A DNA stretch of 10,389 bases from a virus (Duplodnaviria; Heunggongvirae; Uroviricota; Caudoviricetes): IMG/VR virus record IMGVR_UViG_2711768019_000005; one strand, written 5' to 3'. Positions 1-10,389 of this stretch are shown here, in pieces. A model generated the notes under the pieces. It was not told where the DNA came from and ran no database searches. It saw nothing but the letters and a program-made list of their open reading frames with translations. A program made the position numbers and the translations under genes. Within the stretch, counting starts at the first letter, position 1. Every line of letters starts with the position of its first letter.

Positions 1-65
1 CTACGGCAGCAAGCCAGTAATGGGTTAAGTGATAACAGGTGTCTGGAAATATAGGGGCAAATCCA
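1..65 (+). mobile_element. IS2 right terminus (IRR), element body extends upstream of the window; bases 2-52 encode the InsD (orfB) C-terminus
   Basis: Bases 1-65 match the IS2 right end as I remember it and end in ...GGGGCAAATCCA at 65. Frame 2 reads RQQASNGLSDNRCLEI then TAG at 50-52, which matches the InsD C-terminus. The reading frame of the next gene starts abruptly at 66. Confidence 0.75.
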
Positions 66-173
66 GCGTTCATCAGCCCCCGCATTGCCGACAGGATCAC
101 AGACGGGGGGCGCAACTGGTTGTCGTTCAACTGGCCCAGCTACCGTTCTTGTATCAGAGGTGTGGCTGCATGA
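66..173 (+). pseudogene. 3' fragment of an upstream gene (probably the replication initiator or helicase loader) truncated by the IS2 insertion
   Basis: Open frame from the IS2 junction at 66 (…AFISPRIADRITDGGRNWLSFNWPSYRSCIRGVAA) ending at TGA 171-173, which overlaps the helicase ATG at 170 (ATGA coupling). No start codon or RBS of its own. Product identity is inferred from position only. Confidence 0.35.
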
Positions 174-1561
174 CAACACCAGTCTGGCGTAATGATGACC
201 TGGAAGGCGCTGTCATTGGCGCATTCTTTCTGCGTGGGGCAGATCATGAAGTGATGGATATTCTGATCACACTACCGGCGGACATTTTTTCTGTACGAGC
301 GTATCGGGATATCTACACAGGCATCTGCAGACAGGCCCGTGTTTCAGGAGTGATTGACCCCGTGCTGTTGTGTAATGAGATGCCGGAACTTGCCCCGGTG
401 ATTACTGATACCGGGCGTAAAACCTGGGTGAAGTCTTCACTGGAGCACTATGTTGCAGCGTTGCGGCGCAATGCCGCACTGCGCGATGCAGAAAAAACAC
501 TGAATGAGGCGCTGCAGAAATTACGTGATGCGCATACCTGTGAAGCAGCTGAAGATGCCCTGAAGGATGCGCAGAACATGATGGTCACACTGTCGACAGG
601 AAAGGGCGTCATTCAGCCGGTACATATTGATGATGTGCTTCCGGAAGTGGTTGAGCGTGTTGAATGCCGGAATCAGGGGCTGGAGAAATCCAGGACGTTG
701 ATGACCGGTATTGATGAACTGGACGCAAAAACAGGCGGTATGGAGCCCGGAGACCTGGTATTCATTGCCGCCCGTCCTTCGATGGGGAAAACCGAACTTG
801 CGCTGGACATCATCGACAAGGTGACTGAGCAGGGGCATGGTGTGCTTCTGTTCACCATGGAGATGGCGAACATCCAGATTGGTGAACGTATGGTGTCTGC
901 GGCTGGAGGGATGCCAGTATCACGCCTGAAATCTGTGGCTCACTTTGAAGATGAAGACTGGGCGCGTTTCTCACAAGGGGTGGGGCGGATGACCGGGCGC
1001 AATATCTGGATGGTGGACCAGGCGAACCTGACCATTGATGAGATATGCGCAACAACGAAACACCATCTGATTAAACATCCGGAAACGGCGCTGGTGGTGG
1101 TTGATTATCTCGGGCTGATAAAAACCCGAACCACGGGGCGTCATGACCTTGCCGTGGGTGAAATCTCAAAGGGGCTTAAAGGCCTGGCAAAATCCGGTGG
1201 TTTTCCGTTGATTGCGCTGAGCCAGCTCTCCCGCGGTGTGGAGTCCAGACCCAATAAACGTCCCATGAACTCAGACCTGAAAAATTCCGGAGAAATAGAG
1301 GCGGATGCAGACATCATTCTGATGCTTTACAGGGATGAAGTGTACAACCCGGATACACAGGCTACAGGCATAGCAGAAATTAATATCACGAAACAACGTA
1401 ACGGTTCTCTGGGGACGATTTACCGGCGTTTTTATAACGGACATTTTCTGCCTGTGGACCAGGAAAGCGCACAGGTTCTTTCCACCCCAATGCGGCAGCC
1501 CCAGCCGCGCAGATACAGCAATACACGTACCGACAGCAGTAAGATGGAGCGTTTCTTTTGA
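170..1561 (+). CDS. DnaB-family replicative DNA helicase (phage P22 gene 12-like)
   Basis: Track ORF 29..1561; the first in-frame ATG outside IS2 is at 170 (MTTPVWRNDDLEGAVIGAFF, a DnaB N-terminal-like segment). Walker A AARPSMGKT, Walker B VVVDYLGL, and a C-terminal SQLSRGVE…DADIILMLYRDEVYN motif are present. The track start at 29 is a GTG inside IS2. Confidence 0.9.
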   Translation: MTTPVWRNDDLEGAVIGAFFLRGADHEVMDILITLPADIFSVRAYRDIYTGICRQARVSGVIDPVLLCNEMPELAPVITDTGRKTWVKSSLEHYVAALRRNAALRDAEKTLNEALQKLRDAHTCEAAEDALKDAQNMMVTLSTGKGVIQPVHIDDVLPEVVERVECRNQGLEKSRTLMTGIDELDAKTGGMEPGDLVFIAARPSMGKTELALDIIDKVTEQGHGVLLFTMEMANIQIGERMVSAAGGMPVSRLKSVAHFEDEDWARFSQGVGRMTGRNIWMVDQANLTIDEICATTKHHLIKHPETALVVVDYLGLIKTRTTGRHDLAVGEISKGLKGLAKSGGFPLIALSQLSRGVESRPNKRPMNSDLKNSGEIEADADIILMLYRDEVYNPDTQATGIAEINITKQRNGSLGTIYRRFYNGHFLPVDQESAQVLSTPMRQPQPRRYSNTRTDSSKMERFF

Positions 1562-1572
1562 ACAACCAGACA

Positions 1573-1815
1573 ATGACTTTTACCTCTGAACAATTGCGTA
1601 AACACGCGCAGGAAATGTTGCGACAGGCGGAACAACTGGAAAAAACAGGTGTAACAAAAGATGCCATTCGTCGGGATATGGTGCCAGCGCTCAGGGAACT
1701 GATGCAGGCGAAACATCGCGCACAAAAAGCGGTGGATGAGCTCGTTGATTGTGTGGCAGAGCTGGAAACCAAAGTTGGAAAGTTTGAAAAAATGGTGCAG
1801 GAGGTGCTGCGCTGA
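1573..1815 (+). CDS. hypothetical small protein (nin-region, predicted coiled coil)
   Basis: Track ORF 1558..1815 starts with TTG; first ATG at 1573 (MTFTSEQLRK…). 80 aa, charged and helical-looking. Its stop TGA 1813-1815 overlaps the rusA ATG at 1815. No recognisable family. Confidence 0.5.
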   Translation: MTFTSEQLRKHAQEMLRQAEQLEKTGVTKDAIRRDMVPALRELMQAKHRAQKAVDELVDCVAELETKVGKFEKMVQEVLR

Positions 1816-2186
1816 TGCGCCATGAGTTTATTTTACCTTATCCGCCGACGGTGAATACTTACTGGCGACGTCGTGGCAGCACATATTTTGTATCAAAAGT
1901 TGGTGAGCGTTATCGCCGTGATGTGACGCTAATTGTTCGCCAGCAGCGGCTGAAATTAAACCTGTCCGGAAGGCTGGCGATAAAGATTATTGCAGAGCCA
2001 CCGGATAAGCGCCGTCGTGACCTGGACAATATCCTGAAAGCACCACTGGATGCGCTGACGCATGCCGGACTACTCATAGACGACGAGCAGTTTGATGAAA
2101 TCAATATTGTGCGCGGTCAGCTCGTTCCTGGTGGGCGACTGGGCGTGAAGATTTATGAAATCACAGGTGATAACGATGGCGCGTGA
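1815..2186 (+). CDS. rusA: RusA-family Holliday junction resolvase
   Basis: 123 aa with the RusA signature: [45 protein letters not shown], and [11 protein letters not shown], which parallels E. coli RusA (PDRRRRDLDN…DDAQV). Sits in the usual nin-region position upstream of Q. Confidence 0.9.
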
Positions 2187-2562
2187 TATTCAGCAGGTTA
2201 TGGAACGGTGGGGGGCTTGGGCTGCAAACACTCATGAAGATGTATCCTGGGCGTCGATCGCTGCTGGTTTTAAAGGGTTAATTCCGTCGAAAGTGAAATC
2301 ACGCCCTCAGTGTTCTGATGATGATGCAATGATAATTTGTGGCTGTATGGCCCGGTTGAACAAGAAAAATCAGGATTTGCACGATTTGCTGGTGGATTAT
2401 TACGTAGGTGGAATGACTTTTATGAGTCTGGCACGGAAACATGGGTGTTCGGATACCTGTATTGGCAAGCGCCTGCAGAAAGCGGAAGGGGTTATTGATG
2501 GCATGTTGATGATGCTTGATATCCGGCTGGAGATGGACAGATACGTAGAACGAATTATGTAG
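2176..2562 (+). CDS. late-gene antitermination protein Q (QuuD / phage 21-type Q family)
   Basis: Track ORF 2155..2562; the likely start is ATG 2176 ([18 protein letters not shown]…), overlapping the rusA stop as ATGGCGCGTGA. Cysteine motif [16 protein letters not shown] and resemblance to DLP12 QuuD as remembered. A late promoter follows 5 bp after the stop. The alternative start at 2155 is not excluded. Confidence 0.85.
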
Positions 2563-2566
2563 GTGC

Positions 2567-2596
2567 TTGACCAGACACATTGTCCGGGGCTATATT
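2567..2596 (+). promoter_or_regulatory. candidate late promoter PR' (with overlapping Q-utilisation site)
   Basis: TTGACC at 2567-2572, a 17-18 nt spacer, then CTATAT/TATATT at 2590-2596, starting 5 bp after the Q stop. This is the same placement as lambda PR'. An inverted repeat cgccag-N6-ctggcg at 2604-2621 lies in the initial transcribed region. Confidence 0.5.
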
Positions 2597-2657
2597 CCTC
2601 ACGCGCCAGCAAAATCTGGCGTCGGGATTGGAACCCCGGATAGAGACCGCGACAGAC

Positions 2658-2682
2658 ACACGCCGCGAGCGTGTTTTTTATT
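2658..2682 (+). terminator. rho-independent terminator, candidate tR' ending a short PR' leader RNA
   Basis: Stem acacgc (2658-2663), loop cgcga, stem gcgtgt (2669-2674), followed by TTTTTTATT. About 55-80 nt downstream of the predicted PR' start. Confidence 0.55.
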
Positions 2683-2871
2683 GTCGTATGCACGCGCACA
2701 TCTGAATTATGGTGGGGCGCATGGGGGAGCTGAAAAGCTCGCCGGTCGGTTTCCCGGTAGTTCCAACCCTGTGCGTCTCACCACCCGATGATTGGAACCT
2801 GACGGTGTTGACAGTTTCAGGTTTGCAGTTTACATTTCCCCGCGGTGCTCAAAACACCTCGAAAGCGGTAT

Positions 2872-2899
2872 CCACACCCGATAGCCATGTGGTTTTTTT
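2872..2899 (+). terminator. second terminator-like hairpin with T7 run
   Basis: ccaca (2872-2876) pairs with tgtgg (2888-2892) around an 11-nt loop, followed by TTTTTTT at 2893-2899. Weaker than the first hairpin. Confidence 0.3.
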
Positions 2900-3042
2900 G
2901 TGTCCAGAATTCTTGGTTTATGACCGGGTGTGCGGCTAATACAATACCAGCAATGGAAATACGCCCGCCGACTTTCGACGGTTTTGAGCGCCCGGTCACC
3001 CTCTCAAAAGGGGTAAATCAAAATATTCGAAAGGACATGTCT

Positions 3043-3606
3043 ATGAATCGCACGTCTATTGAAAAACTCCCGTCACTTACGCATAACCATCTTCCTGTCA
3101 TGACAACAGAGCTGCTGGCTGATTTGTACGGAACAGAGCGCCAGCGTTTGACAAACAATTTCAATCGAAACAAAGAACGGTTTATAGAAGGTAAACATTT
3201 TTTCCTGATAGAAGGTGATGCGTTACGAGAGTTGAAGAACGAAAACTCTTTAAGAGTTTCTGTGAAAATTGCCCGTAACGTTCGCTCCCTCATCCTCTGG
3301 ACAGAACGTGGCGCAGCCCGTCACGCCAAAATGCTCGAAACCGATCAGGCGTGGGAAGTGTTCGAAAAACTGGAAGACTGTTATTTCAACCAGAAACAGC
3401 CACCAGCGGCACAAAACACATCTATCGAAAATGATGGATGCGCATTACTGAGCCACTTCGATAAACACGGTCAGGTTGAGTTCACGGAAAAGGTACCCGC
3501 CGATGCGATGGTATGTACTCTGGAACGGTTTAAATTTTATCTGGAGCAACACGGGTGGATCGTTGCCCGTAAAGAGCAACTGGTGGAGCGGTTGATGCGG
3601 TTTTAA
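3043..3606 (+). CDS. ORF6N-domain protein (KilA-N/Bro-N-related putative DNA-binding or antirepressor-like protein)
   Basis: Track ORF 2845..3606 starts with GTG; AAGGA at 3031-3035 precedes ATG 3037/3043 (MNRTSIEKLPSLTHNHLPVMTTELLADLYGTERQRLTNNFNRNKERFIEGKHFFL…), which resembles the ORF6N domain. Flanked by terminators at 2872-2899 and 3683-3707. Confidence 0.7.
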   Translation: MNRTSIEKLPSLTHNHLPVMTTELLADLYGTERQRLTNNFNRNKERFIEGKHFFLIEGDALRELKNENSLRVSVKIARNVRSLILWTERGAARHAKMLETDQAWEVFEKLEDCYFNQKQPPAAQNTSIENDGCALLSHFDKHGQVEFTEKVPADAMVCTLERFKFYLEQHGWIVARKEQLVERLMRF

Positions 3607-3682
3607 AAATTTTTTCCGAAAACTTTACGATCGTAAAAAGTTGAATATCCTGTTAAGAGTGGTTACTACGCCACACAGCTTA

Positions 3683-3707
3683 AACCCGCCGATGAGCGGG
3701 TTTTTTT
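3683..3707 (+). terminator. rho-independent terminator after the ORF6N gene
   Basis: cccgc (3685-3689), loop cgatga, gcggg (3696-3700), then TTTTTTT at 3701-3707. Confidence 0.7.
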
Positions 3708-3757
3708 ATACCTGAAAAACGGCACAGGACGTTAAACGTGCTGGTGGTCAGATGAGT

Positions 3758-3786
3758 TTGCAGATGTGATGACATATGGTTATTAT
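3758..3786 (+). promoter_or_regulatory. candidate sigma70 promoter for the tRNA cluster
   Basis: TTGCAG at 3758-3763, 17-nt spacer, TATTAT at 3781-3786, about 10 nt upstream of the first tRNA 5' end at 3796. Confidence 0.35.
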
Positions 3787-3795
3787 TCTGCCTCC

Positions 3796-3872
3796 GGCCC
3801 TTTAGCTCAGTTGGTCAGAGCGAGCGACTCATAATCGCCAGGTCGCTGGTTCAAGTCCAGCAAGGGCCACCA
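3796..3872 (+). tRNA. tRNA with anticodon CAU, ileX/ileZ-like (tRNA-Ile2 lysidine type; would be read as Met by anticodon alone)
   Basis: Manual cloverleaf: acceptor GGCCCTT/AAGGGCC, D-arm AGCTCAGTTGG, anticodon loop CTCATAA, T-arm GGTTCAAGTCC, encoded CCA. Close to E. coli ileX as remembered. Confidence 0.85.
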
Positions 3873-3873
3873 A

Positions 3874-3950
3874 CCACCACTAGCTCATCCGGATAGAGCA
3901 TCAACCTTCTAAGTTGACGGTGCGAGGTTCGAGTCCTCGGTGGTGGGCCA
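3874..3950 (+). tRNA. tRNA-Arg (anticodon UCU; reads AGA/AGG)
   Basis: Acceptor CCACCAC/GTGGTGG, D-arm TAGCTCATCCGGATAGAGC, anticodon loop CTTCTAA, T-arm CGAGG-TTCGAGT-CCTCG, discriminator G plus CCA. Begins 1 nt after the preceding tRNA. Confidence 0.85.
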
Positions 3951-3952
3951 GC

Positions 3953-4028
<76 letters not shown>

Positions 4029-4031
4029 TAT

Positions 4032-4106
<75 letters not shown>

Positions 4107-4723
4107 GCGAGATTTGAGACGAAGGTTGTTATTTGCACTGACACAATATTGTGTGGGAATGTCTGACTCCTTACCATCTCCTGTTCTGTGATGTTGTTTT
4201 GTTGCAGTTCCAGTGCTCTTTTTTCAGCACCAGAATGGTGCATTGTCGGTCAGGTTACGTAGTGAACCTCTGGCAGGGGACTGATGATTCATCATTCTGG
4301 TGTTGTAAATATCTCTTCGGACAACTTACAAAATATTCTAAGCAAACCCCGGGAACACACTCTTAACTGCCTTGGCTGGCGGTTTTTTGTACAGTGCTCG
4401 GTATGTGTGAGCTGGAAATCAGATTTTGCATGGACTGGAATCATGCTGTTATTTAGGGGCGAAGAACTGGCTTTTTCTTCCGCCTTCTCACCAGTAACGA
4501 TTAGAAAAATAATGAAATGCCCCCCTCCGGGGAGGAGGACCGTAGAAAAAAGGACCCGCCAGCAAAAACATTGGGGATGAACAGCTTTCGCTACTCAGAT
4601 TGCTGGCGGGTAAAGTTCCTCATGAATTAAGAATGCTACGCGATCTTTTTTAATGGAAATGAAAATTATTGTCAATTAGTCGTGCGTGTTTTTTCATACA
4701 ATATTGGTAAAGGTGATTCAGGA

Positions 4724-5250
4724 CAGTCATCGGTTCGTCTGAGAATGACGTGCAACTGCGCACGCGACACCCGGAGACAACGGCTGACTAAGCTTACTCC
4801 CCATCCCCGGGCAATAAGGGCGCGTGCGCTATCCACTTTTTTGCCCGTCCATATTCAACGGCTTCTTTGAGGAGTTCATTTTCCATCGTTTTCTTGCCGA
4901 GCAGGCGCTGGAGTTCTTTAATCTGCTTCATGGCGGCAGCAAGTTCAGAGGCAGGAACAACCTGTTCTCCGGCGGCGACAGCAGTAAGACTTCCTTCCTG
5001 GTATTGCTTACGCCAGAGAAATAACTGGCTGGCTGCTACACCATGTTGCCGGGCAACGAGGGAGACCGTCATCCCCGGTTCAAAGCTCTGCTGAACAATT
5101 GCGATCTTTTCCTGTGTGGTACGCCGTCTGCGTTTCTCCGGCCCTAAGACATCAATCATCTGTACTCCAATGACTAGTCTAAAAACTAGTATTAAGACTA
5201 TCACTTATTTAAGTGATACTGGTTGTCTGGAGATTCAGGGGGCCAGTCTA
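4724..5250 (-). mobile_element. IS2, internally truncated copy: intact left end (IRL at 5250), complete insC, first ~70 bp of insD, missing the rest of insD and IRR
   Basis: The reverse complement of 5160-5250 reads TAGACTGGCCCCCTGAATCTCCAGACAACCAGTATCACTTAAATAAGTGATAGTC…, the IS2 left terminus. IS2 homology continues through insC into insD and stops at 4724, where the sequence diverges from IS2. Confidence 0.85.
4794..5159 (-). CDS. insC: IS2 transposase OrfA (InsC)
   Basis: Track ORF 4794..5204 (-); the true start is the ATG at 5157-5159 ([56 protein letters not shown]…), which matches IS2 InsC (121 aa) as remembered. Confidence 0.9.
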
Positions 5251-5252
5251 GT

Positions 5253-5273
5253 AAGGCTGCGAGAGGTGAATAA
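5253..5273 (+). pseudogene. remnant of holin gene (phage 21 S21 pinholin-like), last 6 codons only
   Basis: Directly after the IS2 IRL, aag gct gcg aga ggt gaa taa encodes KAARGE-stop, the same as the S21 C-terminus (…REDRRKAARGE) as remembered. Its TAA overlaps the endolysin ATG (TAATG), as expected at an S-R junction. The rest of the holin gene is absent. Confidence 0.45.
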
Positions 5274-5770
5274 TGTCGCCATCATTACGCAAGGCTGTTG
5301 CAGTTGCTATTGGTGGCGGGGCTGTTGCTATAGCATCTGTGTTAATCACTGGCCCAGGTGGTAACGATGGTCTGGAAGGTGTCAGCTACATACCATACAA
5401 AGATATCATTGGTGTATGGACTGTATGTCACGGACACACCGGAAAAGACATCATGCTCGGTAAAACGTATACCGAAGCAGAATGCAAAGCCCTCCTGAAT
5501 AAAGACCTTGCCACTGTCGCCAGACAAATTAACCCGTACATCAAAGTCGATATACCGGAAACAACGCGCGGCGCTCTTTACTCGTTCGTTTACAACGTGG
5601 GCGCTGGCAATTTCAGAACATCGACGCTTCTTCGCAAAATAAACCAGGGCTATATCAAAGGCGCATGTGACCAGCTATGTCGCTGGACATATGCTGGCGG
5701 TAAGCAATGGAAAGGGCTGATGACCCGTCGTGAGATTGAGCGTGAAGTCTGTTTGTGGGGGCAGCAATGA
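5273..5770 (+). CDS. SAR endolysin (phage 21 R21 / DLP12 RrrD-like lysozyme, T4 lysozyme fold)
   Basis: 165 aa. N-terminal Gly/Ala-rich signal-anchor-release segment [20 protein letters not shown], then lysozyme motifs [10 protein letters not shown]…[11 protein letters not shown]…[17 protein letters not shown] lies 6 nt upstream of ATG 5273. Confidence 0.9.
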
Positions 5771-6231
5771 GCAGAGTCACCGCGATTATCTCCGCTCTGG
5801 TTATCTGCATCATCGTCCGCCTGTCATGGGCTGTTAATCATTACCGTGATAACGCCATTACCTACAAAGAGCAGCGCGACAAAAACGCAAGAGAACTGAA
5901 GCTGGCGAACGCAACCATTACTGACATGCAGCAGAGACAGCGTGATGTTAATGCACTCGATGCTAAATACACGAAGGAGTTAGCTGATGCGAAAGCTGAA
6001 AATGAAACTCTGCGCGCTGATGTTGCCGCTGGTCGTCGTCGGTTGCACATCAAAGCAGTCTGTCAGTCAGTGCGTGAAGCCACCACCGCCTCCGGCGTGG
6101 ATAATGCAACCAGCCCCCGACTGGCAGACACCGCTGAACGGGATTATTTCACCCTCAGAGAGCGGCTGATGACGATGCAGATGCAACTGGAAGGGGCACA
6201 GGAGTATATCCGCACTCAGTGCATTAAGTAG
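5767..6231 (+). CDS. Rz: Rz i-spanin
   Basis: Track ORF begins at GTG 5755; ATG 5767 overlaps the endolysin stop (ATGA). N-terminal transmembrane segment [14 protein letters not shown] followed by a charged coiled-coil periplasmic domain, about 154 aa. Confidence 0.85.
5987..6169 (+). CDS. Rz1: Rz1 o-spanin lipoprotein, embedded in the +1 frame of Rz
   Basis: [24 protein letters not shown]…: signal peptide with lipobox (VVGC) and a proline-rich mature region ([19 protein letters not shown]). AAGGAG at 5974-5979 lies 7 nt before ATG 5987. Fully nested within Rz. Confidence 0.75.
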
Positions 6232-6273
6232 CCTTTTTATCGTGGTAAACATTTCGCAGGGTATGAGGTATTT

Positions 6274-6624
6274 ATGCCATCACTAATCCCACGTGCCTGC
6301 CGTAAGCGTGGATGTGCAGGTACAACCACAGACAGTTCGGGTTACTGCGATAAACATCGCGGTGAAGGCTGGGTGCAGCACCAGCGCGGACTGAGCCGCC
6401 ACCAGCGTGGCTATGGCTCAAAATGGACGGTGATTCGTGCCCGTATTCTGAAGCGCGATAAAGGTCTGTGTCAGTTGTGTCTGCGTGTCGGTGTGGTGAG
6501 CGAGGCGAAAACCGTCGACCACATCATCCCGAAAGCGCATGGCGGAACAGACGCAGACAGCAACCTGCAGAGTCTGTGCTGGCCCTGCCATAAAGCGAAA
6601 ACAGCGCGCGAACGAATCCGGTGA
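6274..6624 (+). CDS. HNH endonuclease (terminase-associated)
   Basis: 116 aa with Cys-rich N-terminus and HNH motif DHIIPKAHGGTDADSNLQSLCWPCHKAKT. Located immediately upstream of the small terminase gene, as in HK97-like phages. Confidence 0.88.
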   Translation: MPSLIPRACRKRGCAGTTTDSSGYCDKHRGEGWVQHQRGLSRHQRGYGSKWTVIRARILKRDKGLCQLCLRVGVVSEAKTVDHIIPKAHGGTDADSNLQSLCWPCHKAKTARERIR

Positions 6625-6646
6625 TAATTATTCTCACTTGTAGGGA

Positions 6647-6707
6647 GGGGCGGGGCAAATCCCTGTGACCTGACGTCTTCCGGACTGCCCGCCCCATCGT
6701 TTTTTTA
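6647..6707 (+). terminator. GC-rich stem-loop with T-run; candidate terminator and/or cos-site region
   Basis: ggggcggg (6647-6654) pairs with cccgcccc (6688-6695) around a 33-nt loop, followed by atcgTTTTTTT (6700-6706). Lies in the HNH-to-small-terminase intergenic region, where the cos site sits in HK97-like phages. Confidence 0.4.
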
Positions 6708-6745
6708 TACCCGCGAAAAATGAAATTTAACCAGGAGTGCCGCAT

Positions 6746-7240
6746 ATGGCTGGAACGGCGGGGCGTTCCGGGCGTCGCCCCAAGCCAACGGCGCGCAAGG
6801 CGCTGGCCGGAAACCCCGGCAAGCGAGCCCTGAACAAAGATGAACCTGTTTTTACGCCCATCAAAGGTGTTGAGCCACCAGAGTGGTTCGCTGAAGAAGA
6901 TCTCCCTCTCGCCACGATCATGTGGCAACTGACAACCAAAGAACTCTGCGGTCAGGGCCTGCTGTGCGTGACTGACCTGGCGGTACTTGAGCGGTGGTGC
7001 GTGGCCTATGAGTTCTGGCGACGTGCCGTGAAAAATATTGCCATACAGGGCAACACCATCACCGGTGCAATGGGCGGCAGGGTCAAAAATCCGGAGCTGA
7101 CCGCCAAAAAAGAACAGGAGTCCGAGATGAGCAGCACGGGGGCAATGCTCGGACTCGACCCCAGCAGCCGCCAGCGTCTGATTGGCCTGGCGGGGCAGAA
7201 GAAAGCCACTAACCCGTTTCTGAAAATTATCGAATCATGA
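6746..7240 (+). CDS. terminase small subunit (P27 family)
   Basis: Track ORF starts at GTG 6737; ATG 6746 is preceded by AGGAG at 6733-6737. N-terminus [34 protein letters not shown] is typical of P27-family small terminases. Stop overlaps the large-subunit start. Confidence 0.85.
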
Positions 7241-8970
7241 GCCGGAAATCTTACCCCAACGTAAATGCTGCAAATCAGTATGCCCGGGATGTCGTGCGCG
7301 GAAAGATTGTTGCCTGCCAGTTTGTGATTCAGGCCTGCCAGCGCCATCTTGATGACCTGATGGCGGAAAAAAGTAAGTCGTTTCGTTACCGCTTCGACAA
7401 GGACCTGGCTGAACGGGCCGCGAAATTTATTCAGCTGTTGCCGCACACCAAGGGGGAGTGGGCATTCAAACGGATGCCCATCACGCTGGAGCCGTGGCAG
7501 CTATTTGTGATCTGCTGTGCGTTTGGCTGGGTCAATAAAGGCACCCGGTTGCGCCGCTTCCGGGAGGTGTACACCGAAATCCCCCGTAAGAACGGCAAAT
7601 CAGCAATCTCTGCCGGTGTTGCCCTGTATTGTTTTGCCTGTGATAACGAGTTTGGCGCGGAAGTGTATTCCGGTGCCACGACAGAGAAACAGGCGTGGGA
7701 AGTCTTTCGCCCGGCGCGACTGATGTGTAAACGCACACCCATGCTGACGGAAGCGTTCGGGATTGAGGTTAACGCCTCAAACATGAACCGTCCGGAGGAT
7801 GGCGCGCGGTTTGAACCGCTGATCGGCAACCCAGGTGATGGTTCATCACCCCACTGTGCCGTGGTTGATGAATATCACGAGCATGCCACCGATGCGCTTT
7901 ATACCACAATGCTTACCGGGATGGGGGCGCGACGTCAGCCACTGATGTGGGCCATCACCACCGCCGGGTACAACATTGAGGGGCCGTGCTACGACAAGCG
8001 GCGGGAAGTCATCGAGATGCTCAACGGCTCGGTGCCTAACGATGAACTGTTCGGGATCATCTATACCGTTGATGAAGGTGACGACTGGACCGGCCCGCAG
8101 GTGCTGGAAAAAGCCAATCCAAATATTGGCGTGTCGGTTTATCGCGAATTTTTGTTAAGTCAGCAGCAGCGTGCGAAAAATAACGCCCGTCTGGCAAACG
8201 TCTTTAAAACAAAACACCTCAATATCTGGGTGTCGGCGCGTTCGGCGTATTTCAACTTGGTGAGCTGGCAGAGCTGCGAGGATAAATCACTGACCCTTGA
8301 GCAGTTCGAGGGGCAGCCGTGCATTCTGGCCTTTGACCTGGCGCGTAAGCTGGATATGAACAGCATGGCGCGACTTTATACCCGCGAGATTGACGGTAAA
8401 ACGCATTACTACAGTGTGGCCCCGCGTTTCTGGGTACCGTATGACACGGTGTACAGCGTCGAGAAAAATGAAGATCGACGGACAGCCGAACGCTTTCAGA
8501 AATGGGTGGAAATGGGCGTTCTGACCGTTACCGATGGTGCGGAGGTGGATTATCGCTACATCCTCGAGGAGGCCAAAGCGGCGAACAAAATCAGCCCGGT
8601 CAGTGAGTCACCCATCGACCCCTTCGGGGCGACCGGGTTGTCACATGACCTTGCTGATGAAGACCTGAATCCCGTCACTATCGTCCAGAACTTCACCAAT
8701 ATGTCCGATCCGATGAAAGAGCTGGAAGCAGCGATTGAATCGGGACGTTTTCATCATGACGGCAATCCCATCATGACCTGGTGTATCGGCAACGTGGTCG
8801 GCAAAAACATGCCGGGTAACGATGATGTGGTGAAACCCGTCAAAGAGCAGGCGGAAAACAAAATCGATGGTGCAGTTGCGCTGATTATGGCGGTTGGCAG
8901 AGCCATGCTGTACGAGAAAGAAGACACGCTGTCTGACCACATTGAGTCCTACGGGATCCGCTCGCTTTAA
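7237..8970 (+). CDS. terminase large subunit
   Basis: 577 aa. ATPase Walker A-like GxxxxGKS (IPRKNGKS), Walker B-like AVVDEYHE, and a C-terminal nuclease region. ATG 7237 overlaps the small-terminase stop (ATGA). Confidence 0.9.
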
Positions 8971-8981
8971 CTGAGGTAATT

Positions 8982-9164
8982 ATGATCATGCTGATTCTCG
9001 CGCCTCTGGTGGGCGTGCTGGGTGCGCTTTTGCTGGCGTATGGTGCCTGGCTGATTTATCCCCCGGCGGGTTTTGTTGTTGCCGGGGCGCTGTGCCTGTT
9101 CTGGTCGTGGCTGGTGGCGCGATATCTCGACCGTACACGGCAGTCTGTCGGCGGAGGTAAATAG
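8982..9164 (+). CDS. small hydrophobic membrane protein, hypothetical
   Basis: 60 aa with two predicted transmembrane stretches ([37 protein letters not shown]). Sits between terminase and portal; GAGGT at 8974-8978 precedes ATG 8982/8988. Overlaps the portal start. Confidence 0.5.
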
Positions 9165-10320
9165 TGTTCTTTTCGGGATTATTTCAACGAAAAAGCGATG
9201 TGCCGGTGACCACGCCAGCAGAACTGCTGATGCTATCGGGCTGTCATACGACACCTATACCGGAAAGCGGATCAGTAGCCAGCGGGCCATGCGCCTGACG
9301 GCGGTCTATTCTTGCGTCAGGGTGCTGGCAGAGTCTGTTGGTATGCTGCCCTGCAGTCTCTACAAAATCAGCGGTACCCTGAAAACACGGGCGGTGGATG
9401 AACGACTGCATAAGTTGGTTTCGGCAAAACCTAATGGCTACATGACACCGCAGGAATTCTGGGAGCTGGTTATTGTCTGCCTGTGTCTACGGGGGAATTT
9501 TTACGCCTACAAGGTAAAGGCACTGGGAGAAGTGGTGGAGCTTCTTCCGATAGATCCGGGCTGTGTGGAACCGAAGCTGAACAGCCAGTGGCAGCCGGTT
9601 TATCAGGTGACGTTTCCGGATGGTTCCGTGGATGTGTTGACCCAGAATGAAATCTGGCATGTGCGCACCCTGACGCTGGATGGACTTGTCGGGCTGAATC
9701 CCATTGCGTATGCGCGTGAGGCCATTTCACTGGCAGCGGCAACCGAGGAGCACGGTGCCAGGTTGTTTAGTAATGGTGCGGTGACATCCGGTGTGTTGCG
9801 TACGGAACAAAAGCTCACGCCGGATGCTTACGAGCGTCTGAAGAAAGATTTTGAGGAGTGTCACACGGGGCTTGGCAATGCTCACCGCCCGATGATTCTG
9901 GAAATGGGGCTGGACTGGAAGTCGATGGCGCTGAACGCCGAGGACAGTCAGTTCCTGGAAACCCGCAAGTTTCAGCTGGAAGAAATCTGTCGTCTGTTCC
10001 GGGTGCCGTTGCACATGGTGCAGAACACCGATCGCGCCACCTTCAACAATATCGAAGAGCTGGGGCTGGGATTTATCAACTATTCACTGGTGCCGTATCT
10101 GACCCGCATCGAACAGCGGATCAACACCGGACTGGTACGAAAAAGTAAGCAGGGCGTTTATTACGCCAAATTTAACGCCGGGGCGTTACTGCGCGGGGAT
10201 ATGAAGTCCCGTTTTGAAGCCTACGCCACCGGGATCAACTGGGGAATTTACTCTTCCAATGACTGCCGCGACCTGGAAGATATGAATCCGCGTCCCGGTG
10301 GTGTAATGCCGATCAGTTAA
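9164..10320 (+). CDS. phage portal protein (HK97 family), apparently frameshifted near the 5' end
   Basis: Portal motifs in frame 1 (AMRLTAVYSCVRVLAESVGMLP…NPIAYAREAISLAAATEEHGARLF…). The only good start is GTG 9164 (GGAGG 6 nt upstream), in frame 2, giving [12 protein letters not shown]… which stops at 9296-9298. Frame 1 has no ATG before 9289, and the track start TTG 9073 overlaps the upstream ORF by 90 bp with no RBS. Confidence 0.8.
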
Positions 10321-10354
10321 GGATCAGTTGACCGATCCAGTGGCTGTGTAAGAA

Positions 10355-10387
10355 TCCGGAAACGCTCACTTGTTTCCGGATTTTTTT
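10355..10387 (+). terminator. rho-independent terminator immediately downstream of the portal ORF
   Basis: tccggaaac (10355-10363), 8-nt loop, gtttccgga (10372-10380), then TTTTTTT (10381-10387). Confidence 0.55.
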
Positions 10388-10389
10388 AT

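Follow-up and report, generated by a model that had tools for sequence, protein, structure and literature searches.

An HK97-type portal pseudogene in a cryptic Shigella sonnei prophage remnant: truncation by IS4 followed by a one-base deletion

The closest described relatives of the locus studied here are temperate phages and prophages in which a portal gene follows genes for the two terminase subunits and a small membrane protein. In the Stx2e phage phiP27 (NC_003356), a P27-family small terminase gene, a large terminase gene and a gene for a 60-aa membrane protein lead into the portal gene (L38, P27p38), the GTG start codon of which overlaps the upstream stop codon. The Shigella phages SfII and SfIV and the Salmonella phage ST64B, whose portal protein Sb4 is annotated as similar to HK97 gp3, have the same synteny and the same start, with a portal gene of 1242 bp. 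An e14-type pair of adjacent genes, annotated 'protein YmfR' and 'phage portal protein', is found in more than 1000 complete E. coli genomes. S. sonnei is known for its IS expansion and its accumulation of pseudogenes; our literature search for a description of this particular S. sonnei remnant or locus found nothing specific.

The DNA that we analysed, referred to below as the window, is a stretch of 10,389 nucleotides catalogued as a Caudoviricetes virus (IMG/VR record IMGVR_UViG_2711768019_000005). Its ymfR-like and portal DNA is 93.7% identical to that of phiP27, with corresponding values of ~88.5% for SfII, SfIV and ST64B and 83–95% for the E. coli ymfR–portal pairs. The window resembles phiP27 in having a P27-family small terminase gene, a large terminase gene, a gene for a 60-aa membrane protein and then the portal gene. 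The product of the ymfR-like gene, which matches no Pfam family, is identical to a record named 'protein YmfR [Shigella sonnei]', and the gene occupies a position that is kept in E. coli prophages, phiP27, SfII and ST64B. Since the homologs have the same terminase–ymfR–portal order, the gene that follows the terminases can be identified as the portal gene. The 343-codon ORF of this gene matches Pfam PF04860 (Phage_portal) at 359.8 bits (cut-off 39.1) and NCBIfam TIGR01537 (portal_HK97) at 258.9 bits (cut-off 112.05; model positions 7–343 of 343), and by sequence belongs to the HK97-type portals. The synteny of such a portal is present in its upstream half (terminase small subunit, terminase large subunit, ymfR and portal), and the downstream protease and capsid genes are absent; the homologs have both halves. 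We conclude that the gene descends from an HK97-family portal gene but is itself a pseudogene and not a functional member of that family. With a probability of roughly 92%, it is a portal pseudogene in a cryptic S. sonnei prophage remnant that was first truncated by IS4, with a 1-bp deletion as later decay. The features on which this account draws are as follows (window coordinates).

1–66, plus strand: right end of IS2, the left boundary of the remnant, just 5' of the dnaB-like gene (BLAST between the IS2 copies in the S. sonnei locus L003)
4724–5252, minus strand: IS2 left-end fragment of 529 bp (BLAST of the window against the S. sonnei loci L003–L012 and L021)
6737–7240, plus strand: P27-family terminase small subunit gene, intact-looking (Pfam Terminase_4, TerL_ATPase and TerL_nuclease matched by the terminase pair)
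7237–8970, plus strand: terminase large subunit gene, intact-looking (same Pfam set)
8982–9164, plus strand: ymfR-like gene encoding a small membrane protein of 60 aa, immediately 5' of the portal gene (ORF list)
9153–9157, plus strand: Shine–Dalgarno motif GGAGG, six bases before GTG 9164 and invariant in the homologs (sequence and motif scan)
9164–9298, plus strand: frame-2 stub of 44 codons, of which codons 1–21 are authentic portal sequence and the other 23 are out of frame, closed by TGA at 9296–9298 (translation)
9225–9227, plus strand: site of the 1-bp deletion at codons 21/22, where the ancestral GAA CTG GCT GAT has lost one G of its GG pair, leaving GAACTGCTGAT in the window (DNA alignments)
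9226–10303, plus strand: portal codons 22–380 in frame 1; re-insertion of one G gives a continuous portal of 380 residues
9289–10320, plus strand: the 343-codon ORF, annotated 'portal protein' by gene callers, running from portal residue M43 to G380 and then through five IS4-encoded residues (VMPIS) to a stop codon in IS4
10304–10389, plus strand: left end of IS4, TAATGCCGATCAGTTAAGG... (matches to annotated E. coli IS4 copies, junction alignment and inverted-repeat search)

The remnant spans about 10 kb, with IS2 on its left and IS4 on its right, and carries dnaB, rusA, Q, an anti-repressor module, tRNA genes, lysis genes, HNH, terminase, ymfR and portal. IS2 transposase genes are called upstream of it in S. 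sonnei loci, and the 510-codon dnaB-like ORF that starts at GTG 29 (29–1561) begins inside IS2, whereas the DnaB of annotation pipelines has 463 aa. A further IS3-family element lies inside dnaB in two S. sonnei assemblies (L006 and L012). The interval immediately 3' of the Q antiterminator gene, which precedes or overlaps a gene with an ORF6N domain (2845–3606), matches four Rfam families above their gathering thresholds: c4-a1b1 (2590–2642), isrK (2603–2679), C4 antisense RNA (2705–2788) and sRNA-Xcc1 (2922–3005). This region, 2590–3005, looks like a P1/P7-type C4-controlled anti-repressor module. Between the ORF6N gene and the lysis region, four predicted tRNA genes are tightly packed into 3796–4106: Met(CAT), Arg(TCT), Thr(TGT) and Gly(TCC).

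The lysis region sets the window apart from other S. sonnei copies. All 11 S. sonnei loci that span the region (L003–L012 and L021) have 252 bp, among them most of the holin gene, for which the window has the 529-bp IS2 fragment instead; relative to those eleven loci, the lysis cassette of the strain from which the window comes is thus damaged at one more place. Next to this fragment, within 515 bp of the lysozyme and Rz genes (5304–5818), lie all five differences that separate the window from most S. sonnei chromosomes over 5251–10389; the cluster may have arisen by recombination with, or gene conversion from, the lysis cassette of another prophage. The early region also varies. One S. sonnei contig with the ancestral portal allele (L020, positions 1–5400) has a wholly different set of early genes, namely NinB, NinE, Gp49/HTH, a P22-type anti-repressor, NinH and a PF03589 antiterminator. 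As these are joined to the same lysis–terminase–portal–IS4 block, different S. sonnei strains carry mosaic forms of the remnant.

The start region of the portal gene is split between two reading frames. An earlier note, made from the sequence alone, had described a strong ribosome-binding site and start codon (GGAGG-N6-GTG 9164) that open frame 2 and lead to a stop after 44 codons, with the portal body in frame 1 behind a first ATG at 9289 that has no ribosome-binding site of its own. Sequence and translation confirm this description. Frame 1, which is open from 9073 to 10320, has three implausible TTG codons at 9073–9079 and after them no start codon until ATG 9289. The first G of GTG 9164 doubles as the final base of the TAG stop codon of the ymfR-like gene (a 1-base overlap), and our motif scan found no Shine–Dalgarno-like motif in the 20 bases preceding ATG 9289. 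Codons 1–21 of the stub encode the same residues as intact portals except for A13V, after which the stub reads LMLSGCHTTPIPESGSVASGPCA up to the TGA. Frame-2 codons 1–21 and the frame-1 codons from 9226 jointly match intact portals residue for residue; since both segments together match intact portal proteins, the two-frame pattern is not due to chance. In the protein records the 343-aa product (ending RPGGVMPIS) has an exact counterpart, 'portal protein [Shigella sonnei]', and the 44-aa stub, with either M or V as its first residue, has none. Products of two alternative frame-1 starts, TTG 9073 and ATG 9343, are likewise without a record, the pipelines using ATG 9289. A minus-strand ORF at 8967–9254 (95 aa), antisense to ymfR and to the portal start, was rejected as a gene because the matching frame of the homologs is interrupted by a stop codon close to its 5' end; that the ORF is longer in the window is a side effect of the deletion.

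We aligned the window with eight intact homologous portal genes, five from E. coli prophages (A36, ECZP248, C311, STEC309 and ATCC 43886) and three from phages (phiP27, SfII and ST64B). This comparison with intact HK97-family portals, which the earlier note had proposed, locates one missing G at 9225–9227, inside the interval of about 9220–9235 in which an indel had been predicted: where the homologs read GA(G) CTG GC(G/A) GAT, the window reads GAA CTG CTG ATG. If one G is put back after 9225, the translation becomes MFFSGLFQRKSDVPVTTPAELADAIGLSYDTYTGKRISSQRAMRL..., which leads without a break into the frame-1 body and, apart from A13V, is identical to the homologs through residue 380. The '1-bp deletion or 2-bp insertion' of the earlier note is therefore right in its first member as the historical event; as a repair it has the wrong polarity, since joining the frames requires a 1-bp insertion or a 2-bp deletion. 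Measured against the eight intact homologs and the ancestral S. sonnei allele described below, the gene has the marks of a frameshift pseudogene, a non-triplet indel with a premature stop (9296–9298). A single portal ORF of ~400–415 codons from an MFF... start does not exist in the window: the frames are split and codons 381–413 are gone.

Every annotated copy that we opened is a single 1242-bp portal ORF (413 codons) starting at the GTG or ATG equivalent of 9164 and overlapping the stop codon of the ymfR-like gene, although the record of ST64B has the portal start annotated one codon further upstream. None of them begins at the position of ATG 9289, the arrangement that the earlier note had named as refuting the frameshift. 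A search with the repaired protein returned portals from many Enterobacterales genera, 397–416 residues long and 75–94% identical at 100% query coverage. The N-terminal 42 residues are conserved down to the 75%-identical portals of Morganella, Serratia, Xenorhabdus and Edwardsiella; 14 diverse matches align to the consensus MFF(S/P)G(L/M)F ... (V/M)(T/S)(T/S) ... G(L/M)(S/T)YDTYTG ... AM(R/Q)LT, and a YDTYTG-type motif lies within the first 60 residues in 99 of the 104 near-full-length matches. Over codons 2–42, the pairwise differences among the eight intact homologs comprise 146 synonymous ones versus 87 others. On these sequence comparisons, the true start of the portal gene is GTG 9164 and not ATG 9289.

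Outside S. sonnei the deleted haplotype did not appear in our searches. Nothing in 5,426 complete E. coli genomes matches a 301-bp query better than at 95.4% identity over 301 bp, so that the window does not come from that collection. Among the matches listed, each of which spans 302 bp of genome against the 301 bp of the query, the haplotype is absent; across the frameshift site the E. coli prophage copies listed are thus one base longer than the window. An exact 31-mer across the deletion has no match in a species-representative genome collection. Note that this negative result is uninformative about S. sonnei, since in such a collection Shigella is presumably folded into the species E. coli, with one representative genome, as is GTDB practice.

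The 3' end of the gene carries the second lesion. The earlier note had linked the frameshift to IS2 damage elsewhere in the window; the element that cuts the portal gene is instead IS4. Portal homology stops at 10303; what follows from 10304 onward (TAATGCCGATCAGTTAAGGATCAG...) belongs to the left end of IS4 and is identical to an IS4 copy annotated in E. coli ME8067. IS4 interrupts the gene after codon 380 of 413, which removes codons 381–413 (33 codons) and lets the ORF run on for five codons into the element. A terminal inverted repeat abuts the gene, and a 442-aa transposase follows in the two S. sonnei loci L008 and L011, where IS4 is complete (11016–12441) and is followed by raiA–pheA. 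Other S. sonnei genomes have an IS4 that is interrupted by IS2, with bamE–recN–nadK–grpE beyond it. Rearrangements beyond IS4 thus differ among S. sonnei genomes, and beyond the element we found no remaining portal codons and no protease, capsid or tail genes in the S. sonnei loci. Nor is the target site directly duplicated on the two sides of the element: the right flank in L008 and L011, CAGCCCTTGAG..., holds no repeat of CCCGGTGGTG and is not portal DNA, whereas the ME8067 copy of IS4, serving as a control, has its target duplication. The lack of a duplication on the far side points to a rearrangement or deletion after insertion (an IS4- or IS2-mediated deletion or inversion). The bases that precede the IS4 end are alike at two unrelated sites, window 10285–10303 (AATCCGCGTCCCGGTGGTG) and E. 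coli mlc (L019, 1701–1720; AACCGCGCCCGCGTTGGTC), a similarity that is consistent with a target-site preference of IS4.

The relative age of the two lesions can be read from a second S. sonnei allele. Its product, P0165, a 385-aa 'portal protein [Shigella sonnei]' that consists of the repaired N-terminus and the IS4 tail, is found on 19 contigs (31 index blocks). In all ten of the P0165 contigs that we read (L020–L029) the site reads GAACTGGCTGATGC; these contigs are otherwise 99.5–99.9% identical to the window and share its portal/IS4 junction. Every outgroup has the G, and the G-containing state is the ancestral one on outgroup parsimony, as distinct from a strain phylogeny. As G-containing S. 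sonnei contigs already share the IS4 junction, the insertion of IS4 predates the deletion. The opposite order, in which the 1-bp deletion was the primary inactivation of a then-functional prophage and the IS damage came afterwards, was implied by the earlier note and has general plausibility, frameshifts in essential morphogenesis genes being a common first step in prophage domestication. We consider it very unlikely here: contigs with an intact N-terminal frame already have both the IS4 junction and the VMPIS tail, and a deletion-first history would need a precise re-insertion of the missing G. Of the two options offered earlier, a real inactivating mutation or a sequencing error, the reality of the mutation therefore stands, the sequence being identical in ten S. 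sonnei chromosomes, and its inactivating role does not, as IS4 at 10304 came earlier.

A slightly less probable reading is that the frame-1 ORF has been retained and is expressed from ATG 9289 as a portal lacking 42 N-terminal and 33 C-terminal residues. Such a product would be encoded by 343 open codons that match the whole of PF04860 and TIGR01537 positions 7–343, and the ORF is conserved across the dominant S. sonnei population. That conservation is, however, accounted for by recent common ancestry, the window differing from most S. sonnei chromosomes at only 5 of the 5139 positions in 5251–10389 and at none in the portal gene. ATG 9289 has no Shine–Dalgarno motif, ribosomes that load at the upstream site terminate at 9296–9298, past this ATG, and the end of the ORF is an accident of the IS4 sequence. 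We see still less reason to expect that a low-level product from ATG 9289 acts as a defective portal subunit and poisons head assembly of superinfecting SfII, SfIV or phiP27-like phages, an idea suggested by the open frame; if it did, the portal fragment would be a remnant-encoded phage exclusion function for S. sonnei.

Nor do we expect the two frames to be joined by recoding. A strong ribosome-binding site and start in frame 2 with the body in frame 1 is the layout from which a programmed −1 ribosomal frameshift or transcriptional slippage could produce a full-length portal, and a −1 shift anywhere from 9164 to 9296 would fuse the frames. But a single-frame allele exists within S. sonnei, and the portal gene is also truncated by IS4 and left without partner head genes. 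We found no slippery heptamer of the form X XXY YYZ in 9164–9298, where the longest run is AAAAA at 9190, and no two-frame portal among the homologs: all those examined are single ORFs, and the 120 protein matches listed cover the N-terminus of the query in one frame. The chance of such recoding is negligible.

The portal fragment split by the missing G is thus best regarded as a decayed gene, and the mutation that split it is widespread. Window positions 9164–9300 are identical in 10/10 S. sonnei chromosomes that we fetched, all of them separate assemblies with the same IS4 junction. The 343-aa product of the frameshift allele recurs on at least 1000 contigs (1695 index blocks); note that block and contig counts are index counts and do not represent independent isolates. 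The deletion is a real, inherited mutation carried by the great majority of sequenced S. sonnei. A sequencing or assembly error masking a true GG and an unbroken N-terminus can be set aside as next to impossible: single-base indels are the commonest assembly error and some S. sonnei assemblies do have the G-containing allele, but the deleted sequence recurs in ten separate complete-genome assemblies and the 343-aa gene call across the index, the site is a GG pair without a long homopolymer, and even L006 and L012, in which other genes show additional frameshifts of the kind that noisy long reads typically produce, agree at the deletion site.

We propose the following history. A temperate phage of the phiP27/SfII/ST64B type, with HK97-type head genes, would have given rise to a cryptic remnant in S. 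sonnei. IS4 entered the portal gene after codon 380, and an IS-mediated rearrangement would then have deprived the gene of its last 33 codons and the prophage of every head and tail gene further downstream. Later, inside S. sonnei, one G of the GG pair at codons 21/22 was lost. Ribosomes that start from the strong ribosome-binding site and GTG 9164 would now leave the portal frame and meet a stop codon after 44 codons, and the remaining 359 portal codons in frame 1 would be left without a start signal of their own. In this sequence of events the deletion was probably without functional consequence, a step in the neutral decay of an already useless gene.

In this study we have described ordinary prophage decay in an IS-rich Shigella genome, a kind of feature that is already familiar. 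Its biological weight is small, in that it adds one more decayed gene to an IS-riddled cryptic S. sonnei prophage. What the analysis contributes is the exact site of the indel, the polarity of the two lesions and the order in which they arose, and evidence that both states of the indel occur among S. sonnei genomes. The locus gives a clean order of decay, IS4 first and the frameshift later. For annotation, the public label 'portal protein' on the 343-aa ORF refers to a doubly damaged pseudogene, with a frameshift at codon 21/22 and IS4 after codon 380. The polymorphism of the G deletion (derived allele in 1695 blocks versus ancestral allele in 31) means that it could serve as a lineage marker.

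Unlike the window, phiP27 has an uninterrupted portal gene of 413 codons, followed by prohead protease and capsid genes. The portal genes of SfII, SfIV and ST64B are likewise intact and stand in complete phage genomes, whereas the copy in the window is broken twice. Another close relative is the ancestral S. sonnei allele P0165, in which the locus and the IS4 junction are as in the window at ~99.9% DNA identity; in contrast to the window, it keeps the G (GAACTGGCTGATGC), and its frame is continuous from the GTG to the stop codon inside IS4.
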